A DNA stretch of 64,000 nucleotides from a virus. The stretch lies in the IMG/VR virus record IMGVR_UViG_3300027833_000016. One strand, given 5' to 3'. The notes beneath the pieces are model-generated. The model saw only the letters and a list, made by a program, of their open reading frames with translations. It made no database searches and was not told where the DNA came from. Both the position numbers and the translations under genes were made by a program. Of the stretch, positions 35,795-48,727 are shown piece by piece. Numbering within the stretch: position 1 is the stretch's first letter; each line of letters starts with the position of its first letter.

Positions 35795-38590
35795 ATGTCA
35801 AGACCATTTACTAAATTATCAGACTCGTTTAAGATATTACGAGACAACCTGAATACGACATCGTATAACGTTGGCGATCCAGATAACTTACTTACTTATG
35901 GTGACAGTGATGTTGTCATGGCGATCAACGAGATCGAAAGAGTCTTTGATGCTTCGGCAGGTGAAATATTATATCCTACTGGTAATGCCCTACAAGGCGA
36001 GACTGCAACTCGACTATTGATTAGTACTGCACAAGCAAGTGGTACTGATATTCAAATGAATGTCGGAGCAAACTTCAACGTCAATGCAGTAGGTGATATT
36101 AACCTAGATGCAGGTGGAGCGAACATCAACTTCCTTGATGATTCGGTTGCACGTTTCAACTTTACATTGGGTGGAACTAACGTAGTAGACGTTACTGGTA
36201 TCCTTGACCTTAATATTTCAAGTGACCTAGATGCAGATATTGCAGGTAACTCAATACTTACAACTACTGGATCTCAAACTCAAGAGGGTACATCCCTTAA
36301 CTTAGACTTCTCTGGTGATATCACCTTAGATGCTGATGGTCAAAACATCATCTTTAAGAATGGCGTAGGCGGTGATACAGTAACGCATACTCTTCTCGAC
36401 AATGCAAAGTACACTATTGCCGCACCTGATGACTACACTATTGATGCTGTAGGAGATATAGTACTTGATGCGGGTGGAGACAATATAACACTGAAGGATT
36501 CAGGTACTACTCGTATCGGTTATACCCTTGGTGCTACAAATACTATTACGACTACTGGCAACTTAACAAACAATACGTCTGGTGCAGTAGTTGATTCTGC
36601 CGCATCATACACAGGTACATTCACTGGTGCATATGCTACTACCGCAGGTGGTAATCAAACTGCCACAGTGGGTGGTAACTATGTCCTAGATGCAAACGGT
36701 GACATAACCCTAGACGCGAACGGTAATGATATTATCCTTCGTGATGGTGCAGATGATCGAATCAAACACACACTTGGTGCTACTAACACTACTGCCGTGA
36801 CAGGTAACTATACTGTCGATGCGTCTGGAGACATTGTTCTCGATGCAGGTGGTAATGACTTAGACATTAAAGGTGCAGGTACTACTCGTTTCGCATATGG
36901 TCTTGGTACTAGTAACACAATAGATGTTACAGGAAACTTAACACAGACTATTGCAGGTGCTTATTCAGATAGTGCTACTGGTGCTTATCATATTGGTGCT
37001 ACTGGCGCACTTGACATTGTTAGCGCGTCAACTTTAGTAACTAGTTCTAAGGCACAGACTCACACATCTAACGGTGCATATAACGTCAATGTAACAGGTG
37101 CCGCTAAGATTGCCGCATCAACTACTATCACATTAGACGCGGCAGGGGATATTATCCTTGACGCGGCAGGTGATGACGTAATCCTTAAAGATGCAGGGAC
37201 AGAGTACGGAAGATTCAAACACGCAGGTGCCAATCAATTAGGTATCTACTCTAATGGTATCCTGACTGCAACACTGAATGACTCAGACATTGTATTCAAC
37301 AACGATGTTAACATTGAGAATGATCTTGATGTAGACCGTGACTTGAATGTTGATCGTAACACTACCTTAAATGGTAATGTTGATCTGGGTAATGCTACTG
37401 GAGATACTATCTCTTTCCTTGGTCGTGTTGATACAAACATCGTACCAAGCACAGACGGTACTCGTGACCTTGGTTCTGCCTCACTAGAGATGCGACATGG
37501 TTTCTTCGATGGAACAGTAACTACTGATAGTCTTGTCACAGACAGTGCAGACATTGCTAACTTTAATGTTGTTTCCAATACAATAAGTAATCCTAATGCA
37601 GTGACCCTAGATGGTGGTAATGCCATTAATCTAGACACTCATACTGGTTCGTTGACAATGAAGAAAGCAGGGACTACTCGTCTTGCATATACGCTTGCCG
37701 CGAACAACGTATTAAATGCGACTGGTAGTTTGACTACTAATGCTACTACCCTGATAAAGGACTCTGCTACTACTAGTCACACAACTGTAGCAGGTACTTC
37801 GATAGTACATACCGCAGGTACCACACTGACTAATACGTCTGGTGGTGCAATGCAACAAACGTCTGGTGGAAACTGGACTGCGACTGTAACAGGTGCCGCT
37901 AAGATAGATGCGTCAACTACCATCACATTAGATGCGAATACAGACATTGTTCTTGATGCAAATGGTGGTGACGTATATCTCAAAGACAACGGAACACAGT
38001 TTGGTCGATTCCAAAACAGTAGCAACCAGTTAGATATATACTCTGGGACTACACTTGCAGTAGCAATGGACGCAAGCAAAGTAGAGATTCATGGTCGCGC
38101 ATTCTTCGTAGACAGTGGCGTGAATACTGTTGCACAGAACATAGCAGGTTCTATCAATGAGATACATACCCAGTTAGATTCGGCAGTATCAGAGATCCTT
38201 GTTAACAAGGGAAACATTGCTACCAATGATGCAGAACTTGCAGATCATCTTTCAAGACTTGATTCTGATAGTACTCAGTTGGCAGTTAACATTGGAAGAC
38301 TCGATTCTGATAGTACTCAGTTGGCAGTTAACATTGGAAGACTTGATTCTGATGCTACTTTCTTGCAGTCTAACCTTGGTAAGATAGACACTAATACAGC
38401 AAACATAGCGACTAACGTAAGTAACATTACTGCTGTCAATACTTTGGTAGGAACTCTGAATACATTAGATTCTTCTGCTCCGGGCGGTTTCTTCAAAGGT
38501 ATAAATAATGATAGTATCGTTAAAGCGTTAAATGAACTGGCAACTAGAACTGTCCTTATCTATGACGAAAGCGGTACTCTTCTAAACTAA
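35795..38590 (+). CDS. tail fibre-like structural protein with LDA.G.DI beta repeats
   Basis: Repeated GDI.LDA.G..I..K units, C-terminal coiled coil, ends in LIYDESGTLLN. Confidence 0.7.
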   Translation: MSRPFTKLSDSFKILRDNLNTTSYNVGDPDNLLTYGDSDVVMAINEIERVFDASAGEILYPTGNALQGETATRLLISTAQASGTDIQMNVGANFNVNAVGDINLDAGGANINFLDDSVARFNFTLGGTNVVDVTGILDLNISSDLDADIAGNSILTTTGSQTQEGTSLNLDFSGDITLDADGQNIIFKNGVGGDTVTHTLLDNAKYTIAAPDDYTIDAVGDIVLDAGGDNITLKDSGTTRIGYTLGATNTITTTGNLTNNTSGAVVDSAASYTGTFTGAYATTAGGNQTATVGGNYVLDANGDITLDANGNDIILRDGADDRIKHTLGATNTTAVTGNYTVDASGDIVLDAGGNDLDIKGAGTTRFAYGLGTSNTIDVTGNLTQTIAGAYSDSATGAYHIGATGALDIVSASTLVTSSKAQTHTSNGAYNVNVTGAAKIAASTTITLDAAGDIILDAAGDDVILKDAGTEYGRFKHAGANQLGIYSNGILTATLNDSDIVFNNDVNIENDLDVDRDLNVDRNTTLNGNVDLGNATGDTISFLGRVDTNIVPSTDGTRDLGSASLEMRHGFFDGTVTTDSLVTDSADIANFNVVSNTISNPNAVTLDGGNAINLDTHTGSLTMKKAGTTRLAYTLAANNVLNATGSLTTNATTLIKDSATTSHTTVAGTSIVHTAGTTLTNTSGGAMQQTSGGNWTATVTGAAKIDASTTITLDANTDIVLDANGGDVYLKDNGTQFGRFQNSSNQLDIYSGTTLAVAMDASKVEIHGRAFFVDSGVNTVAQNIAGSINEIHTQLDSAVSEILVNKGNIATNDAELADHLSRLDSDSTQLAVNIGRLDSDSTQLAVNIGRLDSDATFLQSNLGKIDTNTANIATNVSNITAVNTLVGTLNTLDSSAPGGFFKGINNDSIVKALNELATRTVLIYDESGTLLN
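38254..38353. repeat. 42-bp tandem repeat (about 2.4 copies) encoding RLDSDSTQLAVNIG
   Basis: GATTCTGATAGTACTCAGTTGGCAGTTAACATTGGAAGAC occurs twice. Confidence 0.9.
38500..38507 (+). promoter_or_regulatory. late promoter TATAAATA upstream of repeat protein 1
   Basis: Exact consensus about 95 nt before ATG 38603, inside the upstream CDS. Confidence 0.55.
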
Positions 38591-38602: not shown

Positions 38603-41600
38603 ATGTCGAATAATAAGACATTACCGTTAAAGTTAAAAGACAGTGATGGTAATCTCCAACAGATCAGTGCAACGGAGAAGAACTATGTTGCCTACCTTGC
38701 AGGACTACAGAACGCGCAAGCGGATAGTAGTGATGTAGGTCTTCTCACGCTTGCCTCTAGTGGAAACCGAGGAATCGGTTCCACCCTAGACACCTACTAC
38801 CCAGAACCAGTAGGTACGCATCCTTACGACCAAGTTTCGGTAATCAGTAGCACAAAGAACCTGTTCCAGATTAATGGTACGGCAAGCGAAGCAGATAGTG
38901 ACTTCCGTCTACCCATTGCTCATTTCGGGGCGCACGTTTACGAACAACCTGCTTCGAACTTCAATGCCTTTAGTGATGAGATCAATGCTCGTATTGCTCT
39001 ATCGGACTATCCGGGATCTTTAAAGTTATCTCCAACTGCTCCTAGTTCTGACTATAGCATACTAGTACCTTCTGTCCTGTTAGATAAACGTGCCGACTCC
39101 GCAGGTAATGCGATTATCATTAACGATTACTCTATCTGGCGTAGAGATACAATGACTGCACCTAGTGCTATCCTTGATAGTAAAGGTGGCATATCAAGTC
39201 TTGCAGGTATTAAGAGATCCAATGGAGACTCTGGTACATTCCAAGGTATACAGAAATTAACTGACAGGCAGATCCAAGTATCTGTTGGTCAACGCGCAAA
39301 GACTAGACGTGCTATCAGTGGCAACGTTGGTTCATACGAACTTCGTACTGCTTCGCAAGGTGCCCCTGCCACAGGTACTTGGGCATCTAAGGGTACTGCA
39401 ACAAACACTATTCGACTGGTCAATGAAGTTGCGTACACAAGAACTAGTACTCGATCTCGTGGTTCGGCATATGCAAGAACTCGTGTAGGTAACTATACAA
39501 GAAATTCTACTCGTAATGACCCACAGAACTTTGCAGGTAATTATGGAAATACCTATGTAGGTAACTACACCCGAACATTTGCAGGTAACTACACTGGTGA
39601 CTTCACTGGTGACTATACTCGTGACTTTGTAGGTAACTACACTCGTGACTTTGCAGGTAACTATGTTGGTGATTACACTGGTAATTATACTGGCGATTAT
39701 TCTCGTAACTTCACACGCAACCGCGCATCTACGTTTAACCGCACTAGGGCAAGTACTTACGCAGGTAATTATACAGGCAACTATTCCAGAAACTTTGCGC
39801 GTACTCGCGTCTCAAACTATATTCGTGGTCGTGTATCAACCTATCAACGTGGGTTCGCAGGAAACTATACTCGTATAATAGCAGACCAATACGCAGGTAA
39901 CTTCGTTGGTAACTATGCTCGTACTGGTATTGTTTCTAGAATAAGTACCTATACACGAACTCGTATTCAAAATAGAGTATCAAACTACGCTCGTGCTTTC
40001 TTAGGCAACTATGTTGGTGGTTCTGATGGTGGTACTACATATGGTAGCAACACTGCATACGGCAGAACTAGAATCGCTATAAGTACTCGTGACTTCGAAG
40101 GTAACTACGCAAGAAACTTTGAACGTACTCGTGAATCTAACTATGCTCGTAACTTTGCAGGAGAGTATGCAAGAGACTACTTCCGTACATTCGTAGGTAA
40201 CTATGCTCGTGACTTCGCAGGTAACTATATAGGAAACTATGTTGGTGCTGATGGTGGCGGCACTGTTTATGGCACTAACAGAGCATTTGGTCGAACTCGT
40301 ATACAGAACAGAATAAGTACTTACATAGGCAACTATACACAGATTCGTACATCTTCCTATTCAGGTAACTTTACGAGAGGCACTTATTTTATAGGAAACT
40401 ATATTGGAACTGGTTGGCCAACAAGTGAAGTAAATCGATATGTCGGTAACTATAGTGTGGGATATACTCGCATATATGCCGCAAATGCACAAAACTTCCA
40501 AGGTAACTACGCAGGTGATCCATCAAATACTGAGTATGGTGGTTTCTACACTGGTATCGAAAGTACTGCAACATTCACTGGTGACTTTCAGAGAACTAGG
40601 GTGGCACTGGGGGCATTTCATAGGGCATCTAATGTCGGTGATGGAAATTATCTTAGAAATAGTGCCACTGGATACACTAGAACCAAAGCATCTACTATAA
40701 TCTCAGTAAGGGAAAGAGCAAGTACGAATATTTATTATGCCAGAGATGGTTACCCGAAAGGCGGCAATCCGCTATACTATTCTGGTTCAGGTTTCTATAC
40801 AGGTAACTACACAGGCACCGCTAATTTTACTGGCAACTTCCTTAGATTGTTTGTGGGCAACTACGTCCGTACCTTCAATCGAGTATCTAGTCAATCGTTC
40901 AGTAGTGTAACGATTGATACAAGGAACGTAACCTTTACTGGAAACTATCTTGGTAACTATGCTCGTGCCTATGCAGGTACCTATATTGGTAACTATGTAG
41001 GTGCTGATGGTGGTGGCACTGTTTATGGATCTAACACTGCATTTGGTCGAAACAGAAACTCAGGTTACGCAAGAAACTTTGAACGTACTCGTGAATCTAA
41101 CTATGCTCGTAACTTTGAGGGTAATTACTCAAGAGACTTTGCAGGAATACGCAGTAGTTCTTACACAGGAAACTATGTCGGCAACTATGCTCGTACCTTT
41201 GTAGGTGACTATTCTAGAAACTATACGAGAACATTCGTAGGTAATTACACTGGTAACTATCAGAGATTGTTTACTGGTAACTATACAAGAGACTATAACA
41301 GAACTTCTACGCGAACAAGTATCGTTAACAGAACCTCTGCATATAATAGAACTCGTGTATCAAACTATTCTCGTTCTTTCACTGGTGACTACACAAGAAA
41401 CTTTGCAGGTAACTATGCAAGAAACTATTCGGCAGACTATACTAGAATAAGAGCATCATCTTTTTCTAGGACTAGAACTTCTAACTTTACTAGAAACCGT
41501 GGTTCGGCATATGCAGGAGATTACACAAGAACTCGTGTTACTGATTCTGTTGGCGAATATAGTAGAGCATATAGTCGTACCCGAACAAGTAACTACACTA

Positions 41601-41845
41601 GAAACTCTACTAGAGATTCGACCAGAAACCGTGATTCGGCATATGCAAGAACTCGTGGTTCTACTTTTACTAGGTCAAGAACAAGTGCGTATACTGGTGA
41701 CTTCACTGGAGATTACACAAGAAACTTCGAAGGTAACTACTCACGGAACTTTGCAGGTAATTATGTCGGTAACTATGTTGGACAGACTATCGGTAATAGT
41801 ATATTCAACGTGGAGACTTATACCTTATATGTAAGAACTGCATAG
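38603..41845 (+). CDS. R/Y/G/N/T tetrapeptide-repeat protein 1 (putative fibre)
   Basis: About 275-aa N-domain homologous to that of 41899..46773 (LK...GNL, YLAGLQ, NARIALSDYPG, VGSY.LR.A.QG.P..GTW..KGTATNT); xGNY/xRxR repeats; C-terminal ETYTLYVR.A. Confidence 0.85.
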   Translation: MSNNKTLPLKLKDSDGNLQQISATEKNYVAYLAGLQNAQADSSDVGLLTLASSGNRGIGSTLDTYYPEPVGTHPYDQVSVISSTKNLFQINGTASEADSDFRLPIAHFGAHVYEQPASNFNAFSDEINARIALSDYPGSLKLSPTAPSSDYSILVPSVLLDKRADSAGNAIIINDYSIWRRDTMTAPSAILDSKGGISSLAGIKRSNGDSGTFQGIQKLTDRQIQVSVGQRAKTRRAISGNVGSYELRTASQGAPATGTWASKGTATNTIRLVNEVAYTRTSTRSRGSAYARTRVGNYTRNSTRNDPQNFAGNYGNTYVGNYTRTFAGNYTGDFTGDYTRDFVGNYTRDFAGNYVGDYTGNYTGDYSRNFTRNRASTFNRTRASTYAGNYTGNYSRNFARTRVSNYIRGRVSTYQRGFAGNYTRIIADQYAGNFVGNYARTGIVSRISTYTRTRIQNRVSNYARAFLGNYVGGSDGGTTYGSNTAYGRTRIAISTRDFEGNYARNFERTRESNYARNFAGEYARDYFRTFVGNYARDFAGNYIGNYVGADGGGTVYGTNRAFGRTRIQNRISTYIGNYTQIRTSSYSGNFTRGTYFIGNYIGTGWPTSEVNRYVGNYSVGYTRIYAANAQNFQGNYAGDPSNTEYGGFYTGIESTATFTGDFQRTRVALGAFHRASNVGDGNYLRNSATGYTRTKASTIISVRERASTNIYYARDGYPKGGNPLYYSGSGFYTGNYTGTANFTGNFLRLFVGNYVRTFNRVSSQSFSSVTIDTRNVTFTGNYLGNYARAYAGTYIGNYVGADGGGTVYGSNTAFGRNRNSGYARNFERTRESNYARNFEGNYSRDFAGIRSSSYTGNYVGNYARTFVGDYSRNYTRTFVGNYTGNYQRLFTGNYTRDYNRTSTRTSIVNRTSAYNRTRVSNYSRSFTGDYTRNFAGNYARNYSADYTRIRASSFSRTRTSNFTRNRGSAYAGDYTRTRVTDSVGEYSRAYSRTRTSNYTRNSTRDSTRNRDSAYARTRGSTFTRSRTSAYTGDFTGDYTRNFEGNYSRNFAGNYVGNYVGQTIGNSIFNVETYTLYVRTA

Positions 41846-41898: not shown

Positions 41899-44800
41899 GT
41901 GGCAAAGTCGAACATACCGCTAAAGGCAGAAGGAACAAATGGTGATCTGAAGGAGTTAACTCCTACGGAAGAGCATTACCTCGCCTATCAAGCAGGACTG
42001 CAATTAGCGGCAGGTACCACAGACGCAGGTACTCTACATAAAACTACTGGTACCACTATCGGTACGTTCGTTGATACTTACTACAATGAGGCAGACGGCA
42101 CACACCCTGCCTCTGCCATAACTTCTGGTAGTACATCTACTCCCCTAAAGCAAATACAAGGTACTGCTAACTACACTGGTGCGAACTATCGCAGACCAGT
42201 AGGGTATCTGAACAGTGGTGCCGAAGGTCTATATGAATTCCCCGACTCTGATATGTCTATTCTTACGACTAGACTTAATGCTCGTATTGCTCTATCAGAT
42301 TATCCCGGAACATATAAACTAGGAACCTCTGCTCCGTCAAGTGACTATAGTGCCTTACTGTCAAACGTATACACCGATACATTAGGTAACGGAACAAGCA
42401 CAGTATACAACATCTACAAACGAAATACAATGTCTGCCCCCTCAACTATCAGACCTATGGGTTTGGTTGGTTCTGATTCGGCAGGGTCGTTTAGTGGTAT
42501 TCGTGAACTAAATGATAACGAGATCAAGCATACGTTTGGTCAACACGCCAAGACAGAACGTGCAGTAGTAGGTAACATTGGTTCTTATCAGTTAAGATCT
42601 GCTACCCAAGGTGTTCCTTCTGCTTCTGGTACATGGGCGGCAAAGGGTACTGCTACTAATACAAAGAGAACAACTTCGGAAGTTGCGTACACAAGAACTC
42701 GCGCATCCGCATATACTCGTACTCGTGGTTCTGCTTATGCAAGAACTCGTACTTCGGCATACACAAGAAATTCTCTTCAGACCTTTACTGGTACTTACGC
42801 AGGTGACTTTGTAGGTAACTACACTCGTGCCTTTGCAGGTAACTATGCAAGAAACTTTGCAGGAAACTACGTTGGAGACTTCATTGGTAACTATCAACGT
42901 ACTCGTGTGTCTCAGTACACAACTAATTTCACAGACGTATTTACTAGAAACTTCGTAGGCAACTATCAGCGTATTCGAGTATCAAATTATACTCGTGACC
43001 GTATTACTGTATTTACTGGTAACTTCATAGGAAACTATGTTCGTACTCGTATCTCTGCATATGCTAGAACAAGTACTCGAACAAGAAATAGTAACTACAT
43101 TAGAACTCGAACCTCTGCATACACGACTGTCTTTGCAGGTAACTATGTTGGAGACTTTGTAGGCAACTACTCACGAACTCGTGTGTCTGGTTACTCTGGT
43201 GCTTACACTAGAATAAGAAACTCTGCCTATATTAGAACTCGTACTTCAACATATACGCGTGATCGTGTTACAAACTTTACTGGTGACTTCATTGGTAACT
43301 ACTCAAGGACTCGTAGTTCTGCATATATCCGTGATAGACTAGTAACCTTTACTGGTGACTATGTTGGTAACTATAGCAGAACATTCGTAGGCAACTATGC
43401 CCGAACGTTTGTTGGTAACTATGCTCGTGCCTTTGCAGGTAACTATGTTGGCAACTATGCGAGGATCTCAACAAGAACTCGCGCATCCAACTACACTGGT
43501 AACTACAGTAGATCATTTGCAGGAAATTACATAGGCAACTATGCTCGTGCCTTTGCAGGGGACTACATAGGCAACTACAGTAGAACTTTCGTAGGTGACT
43601 TCATTGGTAACTTTACTGGCAACTATGCTCGTGGGTTTGCAGGAAATTACATAGGCAACTATGCTCGTGGATTTACTGGTGATTTCATTGGTAACTTCAC
43701 TGGCAACTATGCTCGTGGGTTTGCAGGTGACTATGTTGGTAACTATGCTCGTGGATTCTTAGGCAACTATGGTCGTACCAGATACTCTGCATACATTCGA
43801 AACAGTACTAGAATCTCTACTCGTATTCTTAACTATACCAGAATATCGACTCGTACCTCTACTCGCATTCTAGACTATCAGCGTACATCCACAAGAACTA
43901 GCACACCTACCGAAACGTACACACGAATTGGTTACTATGCAGGTGACTTCATTGGTAACTATACGCGTATCAGTACAAACACTGGTACCTATATTCGTAT
44001 CAGAACTGCGACAGGAACGTACACAAGAGATCGTACTGCTACAGGAACATACATTAGAATTCGTATTCCTACTAGCACAAACACTGGAACGTACACACGA
44101 AACCGTATTGCCGCATACCTTGGTAACTATAATAGACTCCGAATTGCTATCAGTACAAACACTGGTACATATATTAGAACTCGTATTGCCTCATACATTG
44201 GTAACTACGGAAGACTTCGTATTGCAATCAGTACAAACACTGGTACTTATATCCGTATCCGTACTGCCGCGTACCTTGGTAACTATACTCGTACATTATA
44301 CTACGCAGGTAACTTCGCAGGTAACTACACTCGTACTCTATACTATACTGGTAACTATACTCGTACCTTATACTATATCGGTAACTTCACTGGTAACTAT
44401 ACTCGTACATTGTATTACACAGGTAACTATACTCGTACTCTTTATTACATTGGTAACTACACTGGTAACTACACGAGAAACCTTGCATACCTTGGTAACT
44501 ATGCCAGAACTCGCACCGCTACTGGCACATACATTAGAATTCGCACCGCTACTGGCACATACATTAGAATTCGTACTATTATTGGTACATACATTCGTAC
44601 CTCGACCAGATCACGTCTTTCGCAACCGTCATACACAAGAACATCGACTCGTACTTCTACTCGCAGTGTTGCATATACGCGAATAGGGGGTAAAGGTGGT
44701 ACTACCACTTTTTACTACATTGGTACTGGTTACTACGCAGGTAACTTCACTGGTAACTACGCAAGAAACCTATACTACGCAGGTAACTTCACTGGTAACT

Positions 44801-46773
44801 ATGCCAGAACATTGTACTACACTGGTAACTATACCAGAACATTGTACTACACTGGTAACTATGCCAGAACATTGTATTACATTGGTAACTATTCTCGTAA
44901 CCGTATTGCTATTGGCACATACATTAGAATTCGTGTTCCTACTCGCACCGCTACTGGTACTTACATTAGAATCCGTGCCGCTACTGGTACATACATTCGT
45001 ATACGACTAACCAACCGTATTGCTACTGGCACATACATTAGAATTCGTACTGCGACTGGTACATACATTCGTACCTCTACAAGAACTAGTACTCCTACAG
45101 GAACTTATACTAGGAACCGTATTGGTTCGTACACAGGTAACTATACTCGTACATTGTATTATACTGGTAACTATACTGGAGATTACTCTAGAAACCGTAT
45201 TGGTTCATATGCAGGTAACTATCAGCGTACTTTATATTATACTGGTAATTATCTTGGTAACTATACTAGAAACCGTATTGCCGCATACCTTGGTAACTAT
45301 CAGCGTACTCTGTATTATATCGGAAACTATACTGGTAATTACACTAGAACATTGTACTATATCGGAAACTATACCCGAACTCTATATTACACTGGTAACT
45401 ATCAGCGTACCTTATATTATACTGGTGACTACACTAGAAACTCTACTCGTACCTCTACTCGTATCCTTGGGTACACTAGAATCGGTTCATACGCAGGTGA
45501 CTTCGTAGGTAACTATACGCGTATTGGTTTCTATGCAGGTAACTATACTGGTGACTATGTTCGAACAGGATACTATACTGGTGACTTTATAGGTAACTAT
45601 GCTCGTGCGTTTGTTGGTGACTATTCACGGAATCGTATATCTACCTATAATAGAACATCAACACGGAATCGTATCTCGACTTACATTAGAACTCGTGTTA
45701 CTAACTATACTCGTAACCGTATCTCGACTTATACTCGCGACTCAACTCGTAACCGTATCTCTACTTATATTAGAACTCGTGTTACTAACTATACTCGTAA
45801 CCGTATCTCTGCGTATGCAAGAACCAGTACGCGTAGTCGTATCTCTGCATATGCTAGGACTAGTACTCGTGCAAGATCTTCTGCTTATATTAGAATCCGT
45901 GCGTCAACCTTTGCAGGTAACTATACTGGCGAATATTTAAGAACCTCGACTCGTACTCGTAACAGTTCTTATATCCGTAACCGCATATCAACCTACACTA
46001 GAAACCGTGTGTCTGCATATGCTCGTACTCGTATCACAGATTATGTTGCAAACTATGTCGGCAACTACTCACGAACGTTTGTGGGAGAGTACACGCGTAA
46101 CAGTATTCAAGTCTTTGCAGGTAACTTCGTAGGCAACTATGCAAGAAACTTTGTGGGTAACTATTCTCGTTCATTCGAAGGTAACTACACAGGAACATAC
46201 AGTAGGAACTTTGCAGGAGAATACACAAGAACTCGTGTTACTGATTCTGTTGGCGAATACACAGGAAACTTTACTCGTAACTTCGTAGGTGACTATACTC
46301 GTAACTTCGCAGGAGATTACGTTGGAAACTACACTCGTGGGTTTGTCGGAGAATATACTCGTGACAGTATAGCAACCTTTGCAGGTAACTTTGTCGGTAA
46401 CTACTCAAGAGACTTTGCAGGAGAGTATGCAAGAACTCGTGTAAGTAACTACACTGGGGACTTCGTTGGTAACTTCACTAGAAACTTCGTTGGAGAATAT
46501 AGCAGAAACTCAGTAAGAACTTCAACACGAACTCGTGCATCTACTTTCACTCGTAGTCGTATCTCTGCGTATGCAAGAACATCCACAAGAGTTAGTGCTG
46601 ATGATTTCGTAGGAGATTTCACAGGAAACTTTACTCGCGACTTCGCAGGTAACTATTCTAGAGCGTTTACAGGTAATTATAGTAGGAACTTCGCAGGTAA
46701 CTATGTTGGTACTACAGTTAATTCAGGAACAGAAGTAATAGAGACGTATACATTGTATGTAAGAGTCGCATAA
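41899..46773 (+). CDS. R/Y/G/N/T repeat protein 2 (1624 aa), putative giant hairpin fibre
   Basis: Paralog of 38603..41845; residues 265-1602 are built from 4- and 6-residue units. Confidence 0.88.
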   Translation: MAKSNIPLKAEGTNGDLKELTPTEEHYLAYQAGLQLAAGTTDAGTLHKTTGTTIGTFVDTYYNEADGTHPASAITSGSTSTPLKQIQGTANYTGANYRRPVGYLNSGAEGLYEFPDSDMSILTTRLNARIALSDYPGTYKLGTSAPSSDYSALLSNVYTDTLGNGTSTVYNIYKRNTMSAPSTIRPMGLVGSDSAGSFSGIRELNDNEIKHTFGQHAKTERAVVGNIGSYQLRSATQGVPSASGTWAAKGTATNTKRTTSEVAYTRTRASAYTRTRGSAYARTRTSAYTRNSLQTFTGTYAGDFVGNYTRAFAGNYARNFAGNYVGDFIGNYQRTRVSQYTTNFTDVFTRNFVGNYQRIRVSNYTRDRITVFTGNFIGNYVRTRISAYARTSTRTRNSNYIRTRTSAYTTVFAGNYVGDFVGNYSRTRVSGYSGAYTRIRNSAYIRTRTSTYTRDRVTNFTGDFIGNYSRTRSSAYIRDRLVTFTGDYVGNYSRTFVGNYARTFVGNYARAFAGNYVGNYARISTRTRASNYTGNYSRSFAGNYIGNYARAFAGDYIGNYSRTFVGDFIGNFTGNYARGFAGNYIGNYARGFTGDFIGNFTGNYARGFAGDYVGNYARGFLGNYGRTRYSAYIRNSTRISTRILNYTRISTRTSTRILDYQRTSTRTSTPTETYTRIGYYAGDFIGNYTRISTNTGTYIRIRTATGTYTRDRTATGTYIRIRIPTSTNTGTYTRNRIAAYLGNYNRLRIAISTNTGTYIRTRIASYIGNYGRLRIAISTNTGTYIRIRTAAYLGNYTRTLYYAGNFAGNYTRTLYYTGNYTRTLYYIGNFTGNYTRTLYYTGNYTRTLYYIGNYTGNYTRNLAYLGNYARTRTATGTYIRIRTATGTYIRIRTIIGTYIRTSTRSRLSQPSYTRTSTRTSTRSVAYTRIGGKGGTTTFYYIGTGYYAGNFTGNYARNLYYAGNFTGNYARTLYYTGNYTRTLYYTGNYARTLYYIGNYSRNRIAIGTYIRIRVPTRTATGTYIRIRAATGTYIRIRLTNRIATGTYIRIRTATGTYIRTSTRTSTPTGTYTRNRIGSYTGNYTRTLYYTGNYTGDYSRNRIGSYAGNYQRTLYYTGNYLGNYTRNRIAAYLGNYQRTLYYIGNYTGNYTRTLYYIGNYTRTLYYTGNYQRTLYYTGDYTRNSTRTSTRILGYTRIGSYAGDFVGNYTRIGFYAGNYTGDYVRTGYYTGDFIGNYARAFVGDYSRNRISTYNRTSTRNRISTYIRTRVTNYTRNRISTYTRDSTRNRISTYIRTRVTNYTRNRISAYARTSTRSRISAYARTSTRARSSAYIRIRASTFAGNYTGEYLRTSTRTRNSSYIRNRISTYTRNRVSAYARTRITDYVANYVGNYSRTFVGEYTRNSIQVFAGNFVGNYARNFVGNYSRSFEGNYTGTYSRNFAGEYTRTRVTDSVGEYTGNFTRNFVGDYTRNFAGDYVGNYTRGFVGEYTRDSIATFAGNFVGNYSRDFAGEYARTRVSNYTGDFVGNFTRNFVGEYSRNSVRTSTRTRASTFTRSRISAYARTSTRVSADDFVGDFTGNFTRDFAGNYSRAFTGNYSRNFAGNYVGTTVNSGTEVIETYTLYVRVA
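42691..46704 (+). repeat. about 4-kb low-complexity coding repeat block (GGTAACTA[CT] and ACTCGT units, 12/18-nt periodicity)
   Basis: Dozens of GGTAACTA[CT] units and local exact duplications. Confidence 0.9.
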
Positions 46774-46840: not shown

Positions 46841-47305
46841 ATGAGTTATAAAAGATGGATGGATAATGCATTCTGGGAAGATGATACTAAAGAGAAGTTG
46901 AATTGTATCCTAGAGATAATGGATGACGTGGAACGCGAGACACGACAAGTAATGTTGTTGCAACGCACTAACAAAGACGGAACGCCAAACGAACTGTTCA
47001 ATGAAGTTATTGATGATCTAGGTGTAGAGTCGGTTGATCGAAACACCGAAGACCGTAAGGTACGCAAGGCGGCAGAGAAGGAAGAAGGTCAACAAAGAGA
47101 TGTTGAGTTTGCTCGTGCGCGGAAGTTGGAAGAACTGTTCAACTACAAGTTGGAGATCTTTGAGACCGAAGAGATTAAGAACTCTAAGAATCGTAAACTC
47201 AAAGGTAAGTTGAGACGCGCCAAGTCTAAGATTGAAGTAAACTTATATGCAATGATGTTGTTGCAAGAGGTTCTTGAACCAACGGAAGTAGTTGCTGATG
47301 AGTGA
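46841..47305 (+). CDS. hypothetical protein (charged, helical C-terminal half)
   Basis: GGAG RBS; KLEELFNYKLEIFE.EEIKNSKNRKLK.KLRRAK. Confidence 0.8.
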   Translation: MSYKRWMDNAFWEDDTKEKLNCILEIMDDVERETRQVMLLQRTNKDGTPNELFNEVIDDLGVESVDRNTEDRKVRKAAEKEEGQQRDVEFARARKLEELFNYKLEIFETEEIKNSKNRKLKGKLRRAKSKIEVNLYAMMLLQEVLEPTEVVADE

Positions 47306-48035
47306 TAAGACTGAAGGATATGTACTGGTTGCATCCAATAAGATTAACTTCTATAGGTATGCAATCAATCTAGCAGAGTCTATCTTAGACTTCTATCCTG
47401 ATGCCAAGATTACTTTGTTCTGCGAAGAATGGATGTTCGAAGAACTTCATCGTGATCTCTTTGATAATGTTGAATGGTGTACTGGACACTACCGTGCCAA
47501 GTTAGAAGGTATGGCAAGATCTCCTTATGACCTAACCATGTACCTTGATGTTGATATGGAAGTAGAACACGAAGACATTAGTACTTGTTTCCAAATCTTG
47601 AGAGATAGCGAACACGATATGTTGTTCTCTGCATTGACCGATGATAGATCATATGTCTATGCTGAACGAGACTTTGACACCCCCGAAGGTAAGGCAAAGT
47701 TTACTCTATGTGGTGGTATATGTTTGTATGATATGACAGTACCTATCATCAAAGAGTTTGTTGCAGAATGGGAAGACTTGACCAAGAGACAAATGGATAA
47801 GGAATGGTGGCCAGAAGGTTACATCGATTCCCTGAAGTCTTGGGATCAGTTCTCTCTATGGTGGTTGACAGAGAAGGAAGATAAGTACAAAGATTTAAAC
47901 TATGGCATCATCTATGATGATCTGCGATGGAACTATTACAACGCTTTTAATTGGCATAAGACCAAACCAGAGTCAGGGCCAGTTATTGTACGGCACTACT
48001 CGTGCGGATTAGATAAGGACGGACACATATTATGA
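47298..48035 (+). CDS. GT-A fold glycosyltransferase (GT8-like)
   Basis: AINLAESI, K.....SPYDLTMYLDVD (DxD), WDQFSLW and RWNY motifs. Confidence 0.75.
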   Translation: MSDKTEGYVLVASNKINFYRYAINLAESILDFYPDAKITLFCEEWMFEELHRDLFDNVEWCTGHYRAKLEGMARSPYDLTMYLDVDMEVEHEDISTCFQILRDSEHDMLFSALTDDRSYVYAERDFDTPEGKAKFTLCGGICLYDMTVPIIKEFVAEWEDLTKRQMDKEWWPEGYIDSLKSWDQFSLWWLTEKEDKYKDLNYGIIYDDLRWNYYNAFNWHKTKPESGPVIVRHYSCGLDKDGHIL

Positions 48036-48727
48036 GTTATATGCAAGACATACCAATTAAAAACAGAGAACTGTTGCAGAGATTAGACGCATACAGAGAC
48101 TTTCTCTTGGATGATAAAGAACAGTTCCAGAAGGACTTCCATCTTTCGTGTTCACAAGAGGCAAGTCAACGTCACTTCTGGGCAGGTAAAGATCATCTAG
48201 AAGAGATCCAAGCACAGGGAAGCAGACACGAAGGTTTCCCCGATAAGATGTATGGATATGAGATGAGTATTGGTCGCAAAGACCATGAGTTCTTTGAGGG
48301 AGACACCCATCCATCTATACGAACTAAACGAACGGCAGACATTGCCTTTATGAACAAAGATATTATGCAATGGTTGGGCACTCGTTGTAATGCTCTTACT
48401 GCATGGTATCCTCCCGGTGGTTTCATCTCTTGGCACAACAATGCTAACGCGGCCGCATACAATCTAATATTCTCATGGTCTGAAACTGGAGACGGACAAT
48501 TTGAGTATGTAGATCCTGTATCGAAAGAAATTGTCGTTATGAAGGATAAGCAGGGTTGGAACTGTAAGGCGGCATACTTTGGTCACTATGGTGAACCAGA
48601 GAACCTATTCTATCATGCGGCAAAGACCGACTGTTGGAGATGCACAGTATCATTCACATTTGATATCTCACAAGCATCTGTAGACTACAGAGACGATTTA
48701 ATAGAAGAAATCACCTCAGAAATCTAA
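48032..48727 (+). CDS. 2OG-Fe(II) oxygenase-like (DSBH) protein
   Basis: WYPPGGFISWHNNAN, distal FYHAA and R.TVSF motifs. Confidence 0.65.
   Translation: MSYMQDIPIKNRELLQRLDAYRDFLLDDKEQFQKDFHLSCSQEASQRHFWAGKDHLEEIQAQGSRHEGFPDKMYGYEMSIGRKDHEFFEGDTHPSIRTKRTADIAFMNKDIMQWLGTRCNALTAWYPPGGFISWHNNANAAAYNLIFSWSETGDGQFEYVDPVSKEIVVMKDKQGWNCKAAYFGHYGEPENLFYHAAKTDCWRCTVSFTFDISQASVDYRDDLIEEITSEI

Follow-up and report, generated by a model that had tools for sequence, protein, structure and literature searches.

The closest described design to the protein examined here is the needle at the tip of the T4 long tail fibre, formed by domains D10 and D11 of gp37 (Bartual et al. 2010, as cited in PMC6957217 and PMC9659904). 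In gp37, the elongated domain D11 (residues 882-1009) is inserted into D10 (residues 811-881 and 1010-1026), so that the two ends of the chain share a basal domain and the tip that binds the receptor is distal (PMC6957217). Three chains build the needle, whose six beta strands run antiparallel (PMC9659904), and seven iron ions coordinated by histidine residues hold it together (PMC6957217). Here we describe a gene in a viral stretch of 64,000 nucleotides (IMG/VR record IMGVR_UViG_3300027833_000016), which is called the window below. The gene, identified by its open reading frame and translation, lies on the plus strand at positions 38603-41845 and encodes a protein of 1080 amino acids, paralog 1. 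The adjacent gene (41899-46773, plus strand) encodes paralog 2, a protein of 1624 amino acids with one ungapped antidiagonal of pairs and a GGKGG turn at its centre, which was used as the reference hairpin and the source of pair scores. As in the gp37 needle, structure modelling predicts that the amino-terminal domain and the carboxy-terminal strand of paralog 1 form a base into which the repeats are inserted, and the gene likewise lies in a T4-like baseplate and fibre module.

We lean, with moderate confidence, towards a model in which paralog 1 is a putative virion fibre protein whose single chain runs out and back as a two-stranded ribbon with arms of unequal length. Residues 1-278 and the last ~20 residues would together make up the basal domain, and between them would run two antiparallel strands of four-residue units, the amino-terminal (N) and the carboxy-terminal (C) arm. 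One face of the ribbon would carry arginine opposite glycine, aromatic opposite aromatic residues, arginine opposite phenylalanine or tyrosine, and serine opposite arginine, while residues on the opposite face would be small or beta-branched. The base stem would keep the register found in paralog 2, and the distal turn would be a KGG module near residue 719. Since the N arm exceeds the C arm by ~100 residues, its partnerless part would leave the stalk sideways, likeliest at residues ~592-691. A comparable excursion would be the insert that the paralog-2 orthologues of two related phages carry in the C arm, which measures 222 residues in the orthologue O2 and ~235 residues in the other. Three glycine-rich motifs would be short dispensable loops or bulges along the arms. 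By analogy with other phage fibres the protein is probably a trimer, and its function would be the binding of the host surface.

Pairing rule, register and basal domain

The pairing rule was read from paralog 2, in which a single ungapped antidiagonal holds 102 arginine:glycine (R:G) pairs, compared with 62 on the next best antidiagonal. The same antidiagonal also carries 106 aromatic:aromatic (Y:Y) pairs with R:F and S:R pairs interspersed, is free of gaps over ~668 positions, and has the GGKGG turn (residue 933) at its centre. Its rule pairs fall on every second residue, a spacing that would fit one face of a two-stranded antiparallel ribbon, and the alternate residues, which would line the other face, are T, A, V, I, N and D. 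When a DNA palindrome was sought in the repeat region of paralog 1, only one weak inverted repeat was found (51 nucleotides, 71% complementary). With no meaningful inverted repeat in the DNA, the mirror order belongs to the protein itself.

The register expected in other members of the family can be predicted from two anchors, one being a conserved aromatic residue 18 residues past an invariant tryptophan and the other an aromatic residue 14 residues before the C-terminal motif ETYTLYVR, which is present in nearly all full-length relatives; the sum of the two positions gives the register. This prediction was exact for paralog 2 and for its orthologue of 1934 amino acids. With a score table learned from paralog 2 only, in 28 of 58 relatives the anchor register scored highest among 121 shifts.

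Changes of length are also coupled between the two arms. The related phage record G001 of IMG/VR encodes orthologues of both paralogs, O1 and O2, with 86% and 86.7% identity, and paralog 2 and O2 differ in their arms by 92/92, 26/26 and 26/26 residues, each in mirror pairs. A more distant relative, P0079, compared with P0077 and P0078, lacks 36 residues in the N arm (84 residues away from its anchor) and 38 residues in the C arm (86 residues away from its anchor). In O1, the orthologue of paralog 1, deletions of 4 residues were found at residues 352-355 and 978-981, which are mirror sites within 3 residues in the anchor register, and both segments are retained by the two other orthologues of paralog 1. 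The orthologues are 98-99% identical over the first 332 residues, and unmatched length changes among the four copies were confined to the cores of the glycine-rich motifs and to residues ~520 and ~636-641.

In paralog 1, the period-4 repeat region covers residues 279-1058 (39437-41776) and consists of units of the types xGN[YF], xRx[YF], xRxR and xSxY. The anchors place Y278 opposite Y1058, so that pair numbers sum to 1336, and the best-scoring run from the base in this register extends over 70 residues, or ~17.5 units. Residues 279-350 (39437-39652, plus strand), which form the N arm of this well-supported base stem, pair with residues 986-1057 in the anchor register; the C arm, residues 986-1058 (41558-41776, plus strand), is the partner of residues 278-350 and is identical in O1. 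Counting R:G, aromatic:aromatic, R:aromatic and S:R pairs, residues 279-350 have 28 rule pairs in the anchor register, compared with ~21 in other in-phase registers, and the anchor register ranks first to third of 60 in paralog 1 and its three orthologues. The register statistics, the coupled deletions in O1 and the modelled strands described below support a closing stem of paralog 1 that follows the paralog-2 rule. An earlier sequence-only reading of the window had proposed a period-4 region at 39437-41780 whose outer ~17 unit pairs mostly obey this rule, and our result agrees with it on both counts.

The base of the protein was modelled with AlphaFold2 using whole paralog 1 and a 30-sequence alignment. 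The predicted local distance difference test (pLDDT) score was above 90 over most of residues 1-270 and was 77 by residues 271-280. The N-terminal basal domain (residues 1-278; 38603-39436, plus strand; pLDDT ~90) is conserved across the family. Strands were modelled at residues 260-282, the first of the stem, and at residues 1054-1078, the last, where pLDDT ranged from 62 to 97; the C-terminal strand with the family-wide ETYTLYVR motif, together with the stop codon, occupies 41777-41845 (plus strand). The best structural alignments of the model span residues 44 to 1080, which indicates that the C-terminal strand is part of the basal domain. Matches to known folds were weak, comprising beta-prism-like accessory domains with Z scores of 5-7 (best 6.8) and no fibre protein among the matches listed, and a Foldseek search of the paralog-1 model against PDB and BFVD gave no match at E <= 0.001. 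In the metagenome protein P0076, the N-terminal domain of the family is followed by Laminin_G_3 and eight FG-GAP repeats, and then by repeat units. This layout suggests that the basal domain may be an adaptor able to carry different binding modules.

Tip module, unequal arms and inserts

The probable distal turn of paralog 1 is the KGG module (residues 713-742; 40739-40828, plus strand), assigned by homology to the centre of the paralog-2 hairpin. The sequence-only reading had noticed, near 40740, a piece of 14 residues that resembles the paralog-2 tip. We located this piece at residue 713 (nucleotide 40739), and the likeness extends ~20 residues further, to ~30 residues in all, and is kept in the orthologues. 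Among 86 family proteins checked, the module is present only in the two paralogs and in their G001 orthologues O1 and O2, and its homologous counterparts lie exactly midway along the paralog-2 hairpin and along one of two stems, stem B, in O2.

The distances from the KGG module to the N and C anchors are 668 and 670 residues in paralog 2, 712 and 936 in O2, and 441 and 339 in paralog 1. The excess of 224 residues in the C arm of O2 equals an insert of 222 residues plus 2. The arm imbalance is 102 residues in paralog 1, and 109, 121 and 121 residues in its three orthologues. With the module at 441/339, ~100 residues of the N arm are left without a partner, which supports, in a weaker sense than a branched structure, the view that paralog 1 is not a plain hairpin and has unequal arms. 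The best candidate for a side excursion is an irregular stretch of the N arm at residues ~592-691 (40376-40675, plus strand). The period-4 pattern degenerates there, and an unmatched insertion of 10 residues was found inside it, at residues 636-641, in three orthologues. Based on this insertion and on a length close to the imbalance, residues ~592-691 are most likely the part that would be looped out.

In O2, stem A (residues 264-630 with 1546-1912) and stem B (residues 644-966 with 988-1310) are separated at their junction by the unmatched insert (L006:4003-4725), a sequence of 222 amino acids in the C arm that is not made of repeats. The orthologue of paralog 2 in another related genome (L007) has the same two-stem layout with a non-repeat insert of ~235 amino acids in its C arm, and the paralog 2 of the window has no such insert. 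The O2 insert folds at a pLDDT of 86 and matches the jelly rolls of CBM4, CBM22 and CBM16 as well as the lectin-like half of clostridial toxin binding domains, in both cases with E ~5e-5; the prediction for it is a jelly roll of a carbohydrate-binding-like kind. The family of this domain has 1395 representatives, and in several relatives of ~440 amino acids that were checked, it is followed by Laminin_G_3. Taken together, the coupled length changes, the insert and the layout of P0076 favour a role at the host surface, which is probably the binding of glycans.

Glycine-rich motifs and alternative arrangements

The sequence-only reading had proposed that three copies of a glycine-rich turn motif, each flanked by locally complementary units, cap side hairpins of a branched, multi-tipped fibre. 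The three copies were found where that reading had located them, at residues 471, 547 and 799 (nucleotides 40013, 40241 and 40997). Copy 1 (residues 471-487; 40013-40063, plus strand) has its core deleted in O1 and is 3 residues shorter in L007. Copy 2 (residues 547-563; 40241-40291, plus strand) is the sole copy present in all four orthologues, with a length change of 3 residues inside it. Copy 3 (residues 799-815; 40997-41047, plus strand) is found in this genome only and is absent from all three orthologues, where ordinary arginine-type units occupy the site and no compensating change of the N arm is seen. Nucleotides 40952-41051, which comprise motif 3 and its left flank, match the motif-2 tract at 40196-40295 by 88% over 100 nucleotides; judging from this match, motif 3 probably arose by a recent gene conversion within the gene. 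We also considered a pairing of motif 1 with motif 3 across the arms, which a 12/12 co-deletion in O1 had brought up, and rejected it, as L008 lost motif 3 alone and its N arm is unchanged. In P0007, P0009 and P0011, relatives with ~70% identity over the N-terminal 300 residues, an 18-residue glycine-rich motif, GAQGTG...VFVG, which may be the counterpart of the paralog-1 motif, occurs in 3-4 copies on both arms. It is arranged 2+2 or 3+1 on the arms of relatives at this identity, in one of which it is duplicated in tandem, as a unit of 29 residues, on one arm only. Judged by these comparisons, each glycine-rich motif would form a short loop or bulge that an arm can dispense with, and not the tip of a long branch.

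Branching was assessed by folding the unit string with a Nussinov/Zuker-type algorithm and the pair scores derived from paralog 2. The native sequence scored 186 bits, compared with 118 +/- 7 for shuffled units (z = 9.3), 141 +/- 8 for shuffled blocks of 8 residues (z = 5.8) and 160 +/- 8 for shuffled blocks of 16 residues (z = 3.2). The sequence-only reading had put forward folding of this kind as its check, and the excess over shuffled units does not refute that reading. Since z falls to 3.2 with 16-residue blocks, much of the score comes from blocks of like units and not from specific pairings. When the parameters were perturbed, parts of the base stem recurred (residues 274-286 with 1050-1062 in 98% of runs, and 288-305 with 1031-1048 in 90%), and only three other stems were present in more than 90% of runs (411-425 with 511-525, 431-442 with 446-457, and 458-470 with 494-506). 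The topology of the best fold shifted with the penalties, and the inner stems differed in the 86%-identical orthologue O1. The best structure was thus rejected as a call of topology, being unstable to parameters and dependent on the orthologue chosen. Two further attempts at detecting pairs were also set aside. Double-difference scores for pairwise covariation between paralog 1 and O1 gave many diagonals of 45-68 against a standard deviation of 15 and none that stood out, since the scores are dominated by pairs that are rare in the table. On the diagonal with a pair sum of 1311, three R/G changes seemed to compensate each other, but this register is out of phase with the aromatic ladder (~-526 bits).

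Several observations weigh against the ribbon model of paralog 1. From residue 351 inward, the anchor register ranks only 6th to 15th of 60, as the sequence-only reading had anticipated when it described a global register that weakens inside, and over residues 351-865 the paralog-2 scores fit no single register. For the continuation of the N arm (residues 351-470; 39653-40012, plus strand) the anchor register is plausible, not distinctive. AlphaFold2 gave a pLDDT below 50 for residues 285-1051; the model of the repeat region is therefore unusable and uninformative on branching, and the ribbon is argued from sequence statistics and comparative evidence alone. Within paralog 1 itself, the pairing of the arms is backed by a single coupled event of insertion or deletion. 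The L007 orthologue has an unmatched insertion of 20 residues at residue ~520, between motifs 1 and 2, which indicates that this part of the N arm lacks strict pairing with the C arm and that a local N-arm hairpin, around motif 2, is possible. Finally, a mirror correlation of divergence with its peak at a pair sum of ~1328 (r ~0.55-0.6) derives from two block pairs, and gene conversion among the motif flanks could be an alternative source of it.

How these points are to be read depends on the alternatives. A cloverleaf, in which a closing stem bears three long side hairpins capped by the glycine-rich motifs as well as the KGG tip, so that the fibre would have several receptor-binding tips, could explain the excess of the fold score over shuffled units and 8-residue blocks, and the imbalance of 102 residues demands some excursion of the N arm in any case. 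It would also accommodate the L007 insertion, a stem of 13 pairs whose loop contains motif 1 and which appeared in 98% of perturbed runs, and one of 28 pairs, looping around motif 2, that O1 formed in 54% of runs (25 bits). However, the local hairpin scores at the three motifs were 15-19 bits, no more than the best hairpins reach when centred arbitrarily elsewhere in the protein (12.4 +/- 6.9 bits; 90th percentile, 19.9), and the locally complementary flanks claimed for the motifs are thus not distinguishable from this background. The topology varies with penalties and between orthologues, the fold score loses much of its excess once blocks of 16 residues are kept intact, motif 3 is confined to one copy, O1 has lost motif 1, and L008 has lost the C-arm counterpart only. 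In relatives, the 2+2 and 3+1 arrangements and the tandem duplication make the motif resemble a short self-contained bulge. Thus, of the branched stem that had been proposed, the stem and the departure from a plain hairpin are retained and the three long motif-capped side hairpins are not; a multi-tipped fibre gains no support from a motif 3 restricted to this copy and a motif 1 missing from one orthologue. We consider the cloverleaf unlikely.

Two other arrangements dispense with the fold-back of one chain or with pairing altogether. Complementarity could lie between chains, with two or three copies of paralog 1, or paralog 1 and paralog 2, running antiparallel. An antiparallel homodimer would yield mirror complementarity and coupled length changes just as well, and the adjacent paralog genes share the pairing rule. 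We nevertheless hold this arrangement to be quite improbable, for the C-terminal strand is modelled (pLDDT 62-97) beside strand 260-282 of the same chain and is covered by the best structural alignments of the basal domain, paralog 2 has the KGG turn at its exact centre, and the arm imbalance within the single chain of O2 equals the size of its inserted domain. The two paralogs, with 390 and 668 pairs per arm, also cannot zip along their whole length. The repeats might instead form a period-4 beta-solenoid or a low-complexity stalk, in which complementarity is a by-product of alternating arginine-rich and Gly-Asn-Tyr-rich blocks; the inner registers of paralog 1, which are not distinctive, the share of the fold score kept by block shuffles and the lack of a hairpin in the AlphaFold2 repeat region would all be expected then. 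A solenoid, however, predicts direct repeats at the coil period and not a mirror order, and it leaves unexplained the sharp peak on a single antidiagonal in paralog 2, the anchor register being best in 28 of 58 relatives, and the mirror changes of equal size in three independent comparisons, which together make it very improbable. The fold-back ribbon with unequal arms accordingly remains the model we favour. A further-reaching reading, a branched single-chain beta-ribbon in which the pairing rule would act like base pairing to set stem, side arms and junctions, and which would be remodelled by coupled length changes and by binding domains inserted at junctions, appears doubtful to us.

Genomic setting and comparison with known systems

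The window contains the structural module of a T4-like cyanomyovirus, with baseplate-wedge genes at 24-29.6 kb. Past these genes, the order is a DUF4815 protein of 1990 amino acids, a fibre-like protein of 931 amino acids and the two paralogous repeat proteins. The 931-residue protein (35795-38590) has repeated beta units of ~45 residues of the DIVLDAGG type and, at its C-terminus, a run of near-identical 14-residue repeats that look coiled-coil-like. Its sole match was a weak PHROG baseplate hit, and this protein, too, is probably a fibre or is attached to the baseplate. Directly after both fibre genes lie three small overlapping genes of 154, 247 and 231 amino acids (46841-48727), which had no match in Pfam or PHROGs and may encode putative factors for fibre assembly or modification. 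Three small genes of matching sizes also follow the homologue in Phage C48C1, described next.

Apart from the window's own genome, one deposited phage genome was found with a homologue of paralog 1, that of Phage C48C1 (Kyanoviridae). The homologue (L001, record 141011-151054) is annotated as a hypothetical protein and has 3347 amino acids, ~3 times the length of paralog 1. In metagenomes, at least 72 protein clusters have the paralog-1 N-terminal domain, with E values down to 1e-187; the family is thus common in marine metagenomes and nearly absent from records of cultured phages. A Pfam scan assigned no family to paralog 1 or paralog 2, Pfam and PHROG scans of paralog 1 and of its residues 578-766 gave nothing significant, and the matches of paralog 1 in ESM Atlas were unnamed viral clusters alone. 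Full-text searching of the literature found no description of this four-residue repeat or fibre.

If the ribbon model is true, these fibres represent a class of fibrous proteins that has not yet been described, with single-chain stalks of ~100-200 nm and a four-residue rule that can be read from the sequence. The design would accept unequal arms, with a carbohydrate-binding-like domain or an irregular stretch placed off one arm while the flanking stems keep their register. Such tolerance would account for quick changes in the length and the binding modules of marine cyanophage fibres, and the design would provide a natural template for the design of long rigid protein rods. A branched ribbon, if true, would in addition be a programmable protein architecture without a described counterpart.

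Within the family of proposed fold-back hairpin fibres, paralog 1 shares the N-terminal domain, the ETYTLYVR strand, the period-4 units, the mirror complementarity and the coupled length changes, and it stands out by its arms of 441 and 339 residues, its glycine-rich insertions and its irregular distal third. A chain that folds back, with its N- and C-terminal parts in one head and a turn or hinge at the far end of a long antiparallel rod, is also familiar from the coiled coils of SMC and Rad50. Those rods are alpha-helical and belong to ATPases acting on DNA, whereas the strands considered here would be beta strands of a phage fibre, and the analogy is thus one of design only. The gp37 needle is closer, although it differs in several respects. 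It has ~130 residues, whereas 780 residues in paralog 1 and 1340 in paralog 2 lie between the anchors, which is 6 to 10 times longer. In place of the His-x-His iron repeats of gp37, the repeat region of paralog 1 has a single histidine, at residue 673, and its order comes from the R:G and Y:Y rule. Compared with the collar of gp37 and gp12, the basal domain of paralog 1 has only the beta-prism-like structural matches given above, and no sequence match to paralog 1 was found in PDB at E <= 1. Lastly, unequal arms and side insertions of the type seen in paralog 1 are not a reported feature of gp37.

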